From an uncultured Alphaproteobacteria bacterium (GTDB taxonomy: Bacteria; Pseudomonadota; Alphaproteobacteria; RF32; CAG-239), in the NCBI GenBank assembly GCA_944393715.1, contig CALYBB010000038.1, positions 15,325-79,324 of the forward strand: a stretch of DNA of 64,000 nt, written 5' to 3'. The first letter of the stretch is position 1; each line of letters starts with the position of its first letter. The position numbers and the translations under genes are program-made. Below the pieces are notes generated by a model, which worked only from the letters and a program-made list of their open reading frames with translations, was not told the origin of the DNA and did not search any database. This document shows, in pieces, positions 42,402 to 44,157 of the stretch.

Positions 42402-43625
42402 TTAAGCTATACCACGCAAAAGTTTTTTGATTTTTTCCATAACCGCTTTGTCAGGTGTTCCTTCAGCATCCTCAAGAACTTTGGCAAACAGCGGAATTTC
42501 TTTCGGTGTGCCGCGGTCAATACGTGTTACTTTGACGCCGATGTCTTTCCAGATGTCAAACATATCTTCAGCATTGATAATATTTCCTATTTGCTCAATA
42601 ACAAAGGGGACTATATCAAAAGATAAGTCGGCGTCTTTGAGCTTTTCTTGCAAGGTTATGTGTGCAAGATCTACTTTGCGAACCGGTGATATACGGTGGG
42701 AGCTTTCAGAAAACCATAAAGGTTCTTCGTCGTTGAATCGCTCTTCATCGGCGAGCCAATCGCCGGGTTCTTTGTCATTAAGGCATAGGCAGATTTGGTT
42801 GGAAGAAACGCCTATAAAATCAATAAAGGTATTTTTTATGGTGGCACCGGTAATGATTTCGTAGCCTTTTTGTTTAAGAAGCTCAAAAGTAGAATTGACG
42901 CTGCCGGTTTTTTGTTTTGCTTGAGGATAGGGTGTTTTTTTGTGTGTCGGAGAAGCATTTTCGGGTTTTGTCGGTTTTTCTGTAGGTGTTTGGGATTTTG
43001 GAGCCGGTTTGGTTTCGGGTTCAGCAAAGAGATCAAAATCGAGCGTTTCGGTATCGCCAAGTTCAAACAGCGAATGGGTAAATTCTTTGGGTTCAGTTTT
43101 CGGTGCCGGTATTGCCGGTTTGGATGTGTGAGCGGGCGGAATACCAGAGAGAGCGGCGCGGTGATCGGCGTCAAAGGCTGATTTTTGCGGCACCGAGCTG
43201 TCATCCAGCGGGGATCGGATGCTTCTTGGACGAATTTCTTTATAAGATTTTTTCTTTTTGACTACTTTAACAGCCGCAGTATTGGCGATCTTCTTTACTT
43301 GGCTGCCAAAAAAGTAATTGAATATTTTGAGAGGAAAAAGGCTGAGGTTTTTAAATAGATATTCCCAATGTACGGTACTTAAAGCCGCCCACACAGTTAT
43401 CCATGCCGGCACAGCGGCCAAAATTATTAAGACAAAAGCCCATTCTTTGGCCTCGTCAATGACCCACCCTGATGACCATAAATCCCAAGCATGCTGCCAA
43501 TGAGAAGGACGGAAGATGTCAAAATGCCAGTTGGTCAGCATAATAACGCGAATACCCTCTATGAAAAATATGCTCCACAGAAGGCCGACCAAAGCTATTT
43601 TTAGTAAGATAAGCAAAGGTTTCAA
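42402..43625 (-). CDS. Hypothetical membrane protein, long paralog (TM domain, Pro/Lys/Thr-rich linker, C-terminal ~160-aa domain)
   Basis: N-terminal ~110 aa are homologous to the 43687-44157 product, sharing motifs WxFDxF..SHW and W.SGxVI. Confidence 0.5.
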   Translation of the reverse strand: MKPLLILLKIALVGLLWSIFFIEGIRVIMLTNWHFDIFRPSHWQHAWDLWSSGWVIDEAKEWAFVLIILAAVPAWITVWAALSTVHWEYLFKNLSLFPLKIFNYFFGSQVKKIANTAAVKVVKKKKSYKEIRPRSIRSPLDDSSVPQKSAFDADHRAALSGIPPAHTSKPAIPAPKTEPKEFTHSLFELGDTETLDFDLFAEPETKPAPKSQTPTEKPTKPENASPTHKKTPYPQAKQKTGSVNSTFELLKQKGYEIITGATIKNTFIDFIGVSSNQICLCLNDKEPGDWLADEERFNDEEPLWFSESSHRISPVRKVDLAHITLQEKLKDADLSFDIVPFVIEQIGNIINAEDMFDIWKDIGVKVTRIDRGTPKEIPLFAKVLEDAEGTPDKAVMEKIKKLLRGIA

Positions 43626-43686
43626 ATAAACATCTCCCGAAATGTGTCTTTAGACTTTATATTATTTTATAATTGTTAACAAGAGC

Positions 43687-44157
43687 TTATTTTTTTGGCT
43701 TTTGGGCGAGCGTTTGTTTAATTTTTGAGCGAATGTTGCCGGCTTTTTTTGATTTTTCGGGTTTGACGGAATTAATCTCATTTTTTATTTCTTCAATCAT
43801 TTGTTGTGATGATTTGATGTTTTTGATGACAATCCGTTCGGGTTCGGCCGGTTTGCGGCAGCAAAAAATTCTAAACGGGGCCGTCAAAAGTTTTAGATAG
43901 TTTTTTCGCAAAGCAAAGATAAAACCTGTGAGCCAGACGAAAGGCAGCAAAAACAATGCCATTAGCAAAAGGACATCGGAGGTTGTTTTAATTACGCCGC
44001 CTTGAGACCAGAAGGTTGATAAAATGTTCCAAGAATGGGCGGACATGAAGTCAAAATTCCAGACAAGAAAAATCAATTGGTTTGACAGGAATGCAAATAA
44101 AACCGTCCAAATAACAAAAATTAAGGCAGCACGAATTAATTTGATGATTCTTTTCAT
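43687..44157 (-). CDS. Hypothetical membrane protein, short paralog of the N-domain of the 42402-43625 product
   Basis: 156 aa. Shares motifs WNFDFMSAHSW...FWSQGGVI. Basic tail KIKQTLAQKPKK. Confidence 0.5.
   Translation of the reverse strand: MKRIIKLIRAALIFVIWTVLFAFLSNQLIFLVWNFDFMSAHSWNILSTFWSQGGVIKTTSDVLLLMALFLLPFVWLTGFIFALRKNYLKLLTAPFRIFCCRKPAEPERIVIKNIKSSQQMIEEIKNEINSVKPEKSKKAGNIRSKIKQTLAQKPKK

Follow-up and report, generated by a model that had tools for sequence, protein, structure and literature searches.

A tandem pair of paralogous membrane proteins, one with a predicted NERD-like domain, encoded beside a conserved chromosomal VirD4 in gut Alphaproteobacteria

In type IV secretion, type IV coupling proteins (T4CPs) act as the gates for substrates, and to our knowledge almost nothing is known about their membrane-embedded partners outside Legionella. 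The gene for one such partner, dotM, lies directly upstream of the T4CP gene, and DotJ, another inner-membrane protein, is without the soluble domain of DotI. The nuclease-related domain (NERD) is widespread and, as far as we know, still has no defined function; many NERD proteins are also anchored in the membrane at their N-terminus. The DotM protein combines three transmembrane (TM) segments with a cytoplasmic domain that is all-alpha and carries basic patches, forms a coupling complex with the T4CP DotL and with DotN, and recruits effectors (PMC5802825). DotI and its adjacent partial paralog DotJ associate in a stable heterocomplex (PMC4454188). For T4CP partners, a class named 'D4Aux' is defined in a 2025 review, which mentions no member with a nuclease fold (PMC12857230). 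Herein, we analyzed a stretch of 64,000 nucleotides from an uncultured Alphaproteobacteria bacterium (contig CALYBB010000038.1 of assembly GCA_944393715.1; hereafter the window), in which two adjacent membrane-protein genes on the minus strand, encoding products of 407 aa (the long protein) and 156 aa (the short protein), precede a virD4 gene. In the literature searched, we found no link of NERD with VirD4 or other T4CPs, nor of these gut Alphaproteobacteria with type IV secretion systems (T4SSs).

The sequence comparisons confirmed that the long and short proteins are old paralogs with a common N-terminal module of about 105 residues. An initial annotation of the window had proposed this paralogy from blocks of similar residues at the two N-termini, and the alignment proved to be significant. 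BLASTP with compositional adjustment aligned the first 56 residues with 16 identities (29%) at E = 5e-7, and hhalign, run on family profiles of 120 long and 22 short homologs, gave a probability of 96.3% and E = 1.6e-9 over 104 columns. As TM regions can inflate alignment scores, the Smith-Waterman score of 96 was compared with those of 2000 shuffles that preserved the composition of TM1, loop, TM2, and tail each separately; the shuffles scored 36 ± 7 with a maximum of 76, none of the 2000 reached 96, and z was 8.4. All three sequence blocks quoted in the initial annotation recurred in the BLASTP, hhalign, and Smith-Waterman alignments. Further, the hidden Markov model (HMM) of the short family matched the N-termini of most of the distant long-type proteins, down to E = 1e-20. 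That the likeness arises only because two unrelated TM hairpins are both hydrophobic, an idea suggested by the TM-rich region and the pairwise identity of just 21–29%, is hardly credible, since it is contradicted by the shuffle, BLASTP, and profile-profile tests, and the shared signature residues lie mostly in the loop, outside the TM helices.

The topology of the shared module was predicted from hydropathy and the positive-inside rule. Each paralog has two hydrophobic segments, and both termini are expected on the cytoplasmic side (N-in/C-in), with a periplasmic loop of about 28 aa between the segments. In the long protein, TM1 (residues ~2–31) is followed by a Trp-rich loop (~32–58) containing a short helix (40–51), then by TM2 (~59–86) and an amphipathic helix (87–116). 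The family-wide signature consists of W17, W33-x-F35-[DN], [HD]-W43, W50, G53-W54, and F64, with the conserved residues mostly in or beside the loop, and W17, W33, F35, W43, G53, and F64 are invariant or nearly so even in 25 very divergent members of 19–43% identity. The short protein keeps W17, W33, F35, D36, W43, W50, and G53, while W54 is changed to G and F64 to L. Sequence searches of Pfam, NCBIfam, PADLOC, PHROGs, and PDB with both paralogs gave no usable match for the module, in agreement with the earlier remark that the domain was not recognized, and we describe it as a putative Trp-rich two-TM hairpin that is new to the libraries searched. The alternative that the module is a fragment of VirB6/TrbL, which had been raised at the outset, was ruled out: neither paralog matched PF04610 or any other Pfam or NCBIfam family at E ≤ 1, and each has two TM segments where VirB6/TrbL has five or more. 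A relationship to VirD4's own TM domain was rejected as well, with hhalign probabilities of 0.2–0.7%.

The long protein had been described as continuing into a soluble C-terminal domain. This domain was borne out, and from profile matches and structure models we concluded that it is probably a divergent NERD-type domain with a PD-(D/E)xK fold, the NERD assignment applying at the level of the family. The Pfam NERD profile (PF08378) matched 30 of the 58 diverse family members, with a best E value of 6e-7. The C-terminal domain of the window protein scored 16.1 bits (E = 0.017), below the gathering threshold (GA) of 22.1, and its residues 7–103 aligned with positions 12–108 of the 111 in the profile, nearly end to end; the full-length window protein gave no NERD match at E ≤ 1 in the Pfam scan. 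An ortholog next to a T4CP gene in a distant lineage (locus L089) reached 25.7 bits, above GA, and its precomputed annotation reads 'NERD (weak)'. The AlphaFold2 (AF2) model of the full-length protein had a pTM of 0.40 and gave only weak matches in fold searches, which made a model of the domain alone necessary. This model, built from the diverse 58-sequence alignment, reached a pLDDT of 95.8 and a pTM of 0.90, with its elements in the order alpha-beta-beta-beta(-beta hairpin)-alpha-beta-alpha-beta. The core expected of a PD-(D/E)xK fold corresponds in the model to a helix at 245–252, strands at 256–263, 266–273, and 277–284, a helix at 314–331, and a strand at 337–344. When the model was searched with Foldseek against PDB and BFVD, PD-(D/E)xK/NERD proteins ranked first, none of them below E = 0.005. 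The top matches were the Shedu nuclease SduA, R.BspD6I, the R2 restriction-like endonuclease domain, NucS, and Bax1, and a phage 'Nuclease-related domain protein' matched with a TM-score of 0.53; no match was statistically strong.

We filed the domain as NERD-like and not as a proven nuclease, because the window copy falls under the Pfam threshold and the family is without the canonical Lys. The residues depart from the catalytic D ... (D/E)-x-K motif: D269 is present in 43/58 sequences and D284 in 48/58, and the 'K' position, 286, is Glu in 35 and Lys in 4 of the 58. The window copy has D269, D284, K285, and E286, and D269, D284, E286, and E294 are invariant in the close clade. In BamHI, the catalytic motif takes an E-x-E form, and a BamHI-like D...E-x-E variant is conceivable here by analogy. 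The conservation pattern of the family is dominated by an acidic insertion of about 30 residues (GDWLADEE.FNDE.PLWFSE..HR.SPV), in which W290, A292, E294, P302, W304, S313, and P314 are invariant or nearly so family-wide. As a whole, the domain is net acidic (21 K/R vs 30 D/E), and it includes an unbroken run of 27 residues that are invariant across 59 sequences.

Copies of the NERD-like domain with the GDWLADEE...PLWFSE...SPV insertion were also observed without the TM module, in P0230 (residues 620–761), P0250 (689–849), P0292 (64–149), P0294 (56–160), P0269, and P0286. They lie either between TPR repeats and Roc-COR-TIR in proteins of ~1500 aa or at the N-terminus of AAA+/AAA_lid_6 ATPases, architectures that are typical of NTPase-based conflict or signaling systems.

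Between the membrane module and the NERD-like domain, the long protein has a basic stretch and then a linker. The basic juxtamembrane stretch is VKKKKSYKEIRP, and the net charge of residues 105–135 was +7 to +11 in 58 orthologs. K124, K125, S127, Y128, K129, R132, and P133 are invariant in this stretch, and its R-P is almost invariant family-wide. The linker is Pro/Lys/Thr-rich, as had been noted (17 P, 12 K, and 12 T in 108 residues), and its pLDDT in the AF2 model was 41–62. It contains an acidic-aromatic motif, of which F182, H184, L186, F187, D196, F197, D198, L199, and F200 are invariant in the 59 close-clade sequences; the motif is not conserved in distant members, so that its invariance is restricted to the close clade.

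The gene downstream of this pair encodes a VirD4-type T4CP. Pfam T4SS-DNA_transf matched the protein at 197.8 bits (GA 20.1; E = 4e-58), and TraG-D_C and TrwB_AAD_bind matched as well. VirD4 has Walker A (PPGTGKT) and Walker B (VMDEF) motifs, TM segments at 12–50 and 89–116, and an acidic C-terminal tail whose last 40 aa carry a net charge of −14 on average. Its scores were far below the cut-offs of all NCBIfam equivalog models, indicating a divergent T4CP subfamily, and the closest plasmid homolog, with 36% identity, belongs to a VirB4-B8-B9-B10-B11-D4 operon of Erythrobacter.

The short, long, and virD4 genes were found together in 82/82 related loci that we fetched, always at a core chromosomal site between rluD/rpoH and yacG/RNase G/maf/dksA, and VirD4 identity across these loci was 73–96%. 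The expected co-occurrence with VirD4 therefore held in all related loci, but it did not extend to the whole family, as some distant members are not beside a T4CP gene. No mobile-element hallmarks (integrase, oriT-like repeats, or tRNA target) were found near the locus, which has no tRNA within 10 kb. Over 58 loci, the mean pairwise p-distances were 0.12, 0.25, and 0.26 for the VirD4 motor domain, the long C-terminal domain, and RpoH, and 0.32, 0.34, and 0.60 for the VirD4 TM domain, the long N-module, and the rapidly evolving short N-module, respectively. The NERD-like domain is under purifying selection and evolves as slowly as RpoH, and the nucleotide-binding domain of VirD4 evolves more slowly still. 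A motor conserved above RpoH in a protein that scores below the NCBIfam cut-offs points to an unusually constrained, divergent T4CP subfamily.

The cytoplasmic tail of the short protein, small and helical, was basic, as first described (19 K/R vs 6 D/E in the window copy), but it is not plain low-complexity sequence, since ortholog tails share the conserved motifs ERIVIKNIKSSQQMI..IK.EI or, in fuller form, ERIVIKNIKSSQQMIEEIK.EI.S.KPEKSK.AGN.RS. The tail gave no match to the HMM of the NERD-like domain. In the window and in each of the 82 related loci (L001–L082), the long gene is preceded by an intact short-type open reading frame (ORF; median 161 aa) without the C-terminal domain, and tblastn with the short paralog matched all of the 82. 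One of them contains a third, extra short-type copy of 134 aa (L023:7068-7469), about 2.5 kb upstream of the usual pair.

The origin of the short gene is suggested by locus L089, where two full-length tandem copies stand before the T4CP gene. The upstream copy is matched better by the short-family HMM, and its C-terminal domain is more degenerate; the downstream copy is long-type. In a neighbor-joining tree of the N-modules, made without bootstrap, the short family of the window nests in a full-length clade that includes the upstream L089 copy. From the tandem full-length copies and this tree position, the short gene most likely lost its NERD-like domain. Duplication and divergence, as claimed in the initial annotation, thus stands with respect to the tandem paralogs; the duplicated unit, however, was most likely the whole gene, comprising the membrane module and the soluble domain, and not the membrane module alone. 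The simplest history would be that of a single TM-NERD gene next to a T4CP gene that was duplicated in tandem, after which the upstream copy lost its NERD-like domain in the window lineage.

Table 1. Features of the locus and of related loci. Positions refer to the window unless a locus is named.
Feature	Position	Strand	Basis
VirD4-type T4CP, 742 aa	40154..42382	(-)	Pfam match
Long paralog, 407 aa	42402..43625	(-)	ORF; TTG start
N-module of long paralog, residues 1-118	43272..43625	(-)	hydropathy, charge, AF2 helices
Basic juxtamembrane stretch and disordered linker, residues 119-243	42897..43271	(-)	conservation, charge, pLDDT
Acidic-aromatic short linear motif, F182-x-H-S-L-F ... D-F-D-L-F200	43026..43082	(-)	alignment
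Putative C-terminal NERD-like / PD-(D/E)xK-fold domain, residues 244-407	42405..42896	(-)	AF2, Pfam, Foldseek
Hyper-conserved acidic insertion after beta3, G288-DWLADEERFNDEEPLWFSESSHRISPVRK-317	42675..42764	(-)	58-sequence column counts
Short paralog, 156 aa	43687..44157	(-)	ORF; ATG start
N-module of short paralog, residues 1-104	43846..44157	(-)	alignments to long paralog
Cytoplasmic tail of short paralog	43690..43845	(-)	ortholog tails
Upstream operon gene, 661 aa, highly charged, no TM	44157..46142	(-)	without family match
Upstream operon gene, 292 aa, acidic N-terminus, highly charged, no TM	46221..47099	(-)	without family match
First gene of same-strand run, 91 aa, one TM	47113..47388	(-)	weak DUF6476
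Terminator-like hairpin and T-run directly after virD4 stop	40129..40150	(-)	consensus scan
Downstream HNH-like/SUKH-like pair	L017-L082 (e.g. L043:14045-15107), L088:4069-5080, L089:6157-7577, L094:13308-14411, L095:13604-14940		
Distant TM-plus-NERD-like subfamily upstream of accB/accC	L083:10001-11215, L092:339-1679		

Both ORFs of the pair are present in the window directly upstream of virD4, as the initial annotation had placed them, and the three genes are packed tightly, with overlapping or 19–61 bp junctions and Shine-Dalgarno-like sites (Table 1). The stop codon of the 661-aa gene overlaps the ATG of the short gene (TAATG), 61 bp separate the short from the long gene, and 19 bp separate the long gene from virD4. 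GGGAG sits 8 nt 5' of the TTG of the long gene, and AGAGGA precedes the ATG of virD4. A database protein, P0001, is 100% identical to the long paralog. A four-codon frame (ATG TTT ATT TGA, 43622-43633, minus strand) overlaps the TTG start out of frame, and because its ATG lies immediately next to the Shine-Dalgarno-like GGGAG, it is probably not used. The hairpin after virD4 is the probable end of the transcription unit; the evidence is weak, because the total of such sites was not above shuffle expectation, and the same was true of a promoter scan.

The genes upstream of the pair are less constant. The 661-aa gene is poorly conserved (detected by tblastn in only 47/82 related loci), and the 292-aa gene was found in 75/82; both are absent from the distant T4CP-linked loci, and their products could be lineage-specific substrates or scaffolds. 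The 91-aa product scored 17.8 bits with Pfam DUF6476, below the GA of 24, and its gene is present in 75/82 related loci; whether it is part of the functional unit is uncertain. Farther upstream lie the genes of a 693-aa protein-kinase-like protein (49942-52023, minus strand; Pfam Pkinase E = 1e-5, below threshold; PADLOC MkoA E = 5e-10) and, next in order, of a 159-aa multi-TM protein (49466-49945, minus strand), and both genes are kept beside rpoH in 62/82 related loci. Over window positions 1–32000, the GC skew changes from plus to minus at ~16 kb and from minus to plus at ~28 kb, and rho lies at 30489-31742.

On the other side of virD4, yacG follows directly in the window. In 33–37 of the 82 related loci and in four distant lineages, a gene pair absent from the window stands downstream of the T4CP gene. 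Its first product has a ~145-aa core with invariant P-E-N, H, P, G, N, H, and H, and it had one PDB match, at E = 0.045, to the HNH motif of the pyocin AP41 DNase. Matches of the second product, of ~143 aa, to SUKH/SMI1_KNR4 were weak and sub-threshold. From these sequence features, the pair looks like an HNH toxin with its immunity protein, yet it is unusually conserved.

The long family is large. It comprised 1051 clusters (90% identity) at E ≤ 0.01, a profile search gave 380 representatives at 50% identity, and a relative of the long protein was found in 394 species genomes. The few names given by the sources were 'hypothetical protein'. All record titles seen were those of uncultured Alphaproteobacteria, Azospirillaceae, or 'Candidatus Scatocola' metagenome-assembled genomes, many of them from the gut of humans, chickens, or ruminants. 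The 72,556 plasmids of PLSDB, searched by tblastn with the long protein, gave no match. In four distant lineages, a long-type gene lies 10–110 bp upstream of a T4CP gene (P0200, P0243, P0304, and P0301 in loci L088, L089, L094, and L095), and the housekeeping neighborhoods of these loci are unrelated to one another. Another family member, without a linked T4CP gene, sits 3.4 kb from a VirB6/TrbL-like gene. In loci L083 and L084, the gene of the accB/accC-linked subfamily was observed beside a TraT-like (surface exclusion) gene and a gene for an Mtd_N protein; phage capsid genes lie within a few kb.

We propose, giving about equal weight to its being right and its being wrong, that the long and short proteins are a T4CP-associated auxiliary pair of VirD4 in the inner membrane. 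By analogy with the partial paralogs DotI/DotJ, the membrane modules of the two proteins would assemble with each other as a hetero-oligomer, and they may associate as well with the VirD4 hexamer through its two-TM N-terminal domain. On its basic and then disordered tether, the NERD-like domain would thereby sit at the T4CP's cytoplasmic mouth, where it might bind, and possibly cut, a nucleic-acid or nucleoprotein substrate, or might dock substrates as DotM does for DotL. One speculative contact would be that of the basic juxtamembrane stretch of the long protein with the acidic C-terminal tail of VirD4. The short copy, having lost the NERD-like domain, would now be only an assembly or spacing subunit. 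The conservation of the pair as short-long-virD4 in every related locus examined supports this proposal, as do the long-type gene next to a T4CP gene in four far more distant lineages, the member near a VirB6/TrbL-like gene, the two-TM topology of both paralogs and of VirD4, the purifying selection on the NERD-like domain and the VirD4 motor, and the complementary charges of the juxtamembrane stretch and the VirD4 tail.

Several observations weigh against a role as VirD4 auxiliaries. The canonical catalytic Lys is mostly Glu, which makes nuclease activity uncertain. The occurrence of the C-terminal domain in TPR-Roc-COR-TIR and AAA+ proteins suggests a more general sensor or effector role. Some members, namely the accB/accC-linked subfamily and P0265, are not beside a T4CP gene, so that the protein can evidently function without an adjacent one. 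No VirB/T4SS channel genes were found in the window or within 10 kb in ~90 loci, and tblastn of the Erythrobacter VirB4/B8/B9/B10/B11 set against the window and all loci matched only VirD4. The fast evolution of the short N-module is compatible with weak constraint. Finally, the mirror-tree analysis did not single out the long and short proteins with the VirD4 TM domain: the partial correlations of all pairs, including those with the unrelated kinase-like control, were 0.4–0.7.

The main rival, which we consider somewhat unlikely, is that the long protein acts on its own as a membrane-anchored NERD nuclease or DNA sensor, for instance by countering incoming or aberrant DNA at the inner membrane or by serving in exclusion or defence, sharing an operon with virD4 but not a complex, while the short protein is a decaying duplicate. 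This would agree with the members away from T4CP genes that lie upstream of accB/accC by a TraT-like gene (L083, L092), with the fusion of the C-terminal domain to TIR/Roc-COR and AAA+ modules typical of conflict systems, and with the short paralog evolving about as fast as the disordered linker. However, neither PADLOC nor PHROGs gave a match, and the locus is a fixed, vertically inherited chromosomal operon and not a variable island. The short copy is an intact ORF in 82/82 loci and keeps seven signature residues, and T4CP adjacency recurs in at least five separately sampled genomic contexts.

Less likely again, VirD4 may not belong to a conventional VirB-type T4SS but form the core of an inner-membrane module that is self-contained and vertically inherited, a possibility that we rate as rather improbable. 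Such a module might consist of one or two TM-anchored NERD-like proteins, the T4CP ATPase, and often an HNH-like and a SUKH-like partner, and it would process or move nucleic acid at or across the cytoplasmic membrane as a housekeeping function in the gut alphaproteobacterial clade. We keep it in consideration because the T4CP motor is conserved above RpoH, the position is fixed, and VirB genes are missing within 10 kb at ~90 loci.

A still less probable reading makes the NERD-like domain a DNA-processing enzyme of nickase or relaxase type, a membrane-tethered counterpart of the MOB_C relaxases that feeds a strand into VirD4. MOB_C relaxases (pAD1 TraX, CloDF13 MobC) are related to restriction endonucleases, and the PD-(D/E)xK-type fold, the close-clade invariance of D269, D284, E286, and E294, and the position directly upstream of the T4CP gene would fit such a role, as would the nuclease theme added by the HNH-like protein that follows the T4CP in many related loci. 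Against it stand the core chromosomal position free of nearby mobile-element hallmarks, the lack of any relative on the 72,556 plasmids searched with tblastn, and the absence of the catalytic Lys from most members. That the long protein is a homolog of DotM/IcmP, DotI/VirB8, or VirB6/TrbL, or a split-off T4CP TM domain, is very improbable: the dotM-like gene position relative to dotL and a comparable layout of TM segments plus cytoplasmic domain invite the comparison, but two TM segments with an alpha/beta NERD-like domain differ from the three TM segments and all-alpha domain of DotM (PMC5802825), no DotM, VirB8, or VirB6 was among the phmmer, hmmsearch, and Foldseek matches listed, Pfam TrbL gave no match, and hhalign against the VirD4 TM domain stayed below 1%.

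These results define a large, previously unannotated family, in which a putatively new Trp-rich two-TM module and a divergent NERD-like domain travel with a conserved chromosomal VirD4, and they give the NERD domain a concrete, testable cellular context. If the partnership of the pair with VirD4 is physical, the long protein would be the first auxiliary subunit of a T4CP with a nuclease fold, and the long and short proteins would be the second pair of full-length and truncated paralogs in a T4SS inner-membrane assembly, after DotI/DotJ. The locus also flags an apparently stand-alone T4CP module, and the findings would gain in interest if these genomes prove to be without a T4SS channel.

Compared with known systems, the long protein resembles MOB_C relaxases in being a putative PD-(D/E)xK-type protein that may work with a coupling protein; those relaxases are soluble and plasmid-borne, whereas the long protein is predicted to be membrane-anchored, is chromosomal, and is absent from the plasmids searched. 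With DotI/DotJ (IcmL/IcmM), the pair shares the combination of a full-length membrane protein and a partial paralog. The soluble domain of DotI is periplasmic and VirB8-like, whereas the long protein has a NERD-like one whose predicted location is the cytoplasm, and the searches showed no homology between the two. As in DotM, N-terminal TM helices in the inner membrane are joined to a cytoplasmic domain, which in DotM serves as a platform for substrate recruitment to the T4CP (PMC5802825, PMC12857230). The long protein differs in its two TM segments and acidic alpha/beta domain and had no DotM entry among its listed sequence and fold matches, so that the likeness, including the presumed contact with VirD4, is one of analogy. 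The closest relation is to NERD proteins, as the C-terminal domain aligns with PF08378 end to end and has the alpha-beta-beta-beta-alpha-beta core in its AF2 model. The window copy departs from NERD in scoring under the gathering threshold, in the Lys that is mostly Glu across its family, and in the acidic insertion of the window family; here, the NERD-like domain is joined to a Trp-rich two-TM module and linked to a T4CP.

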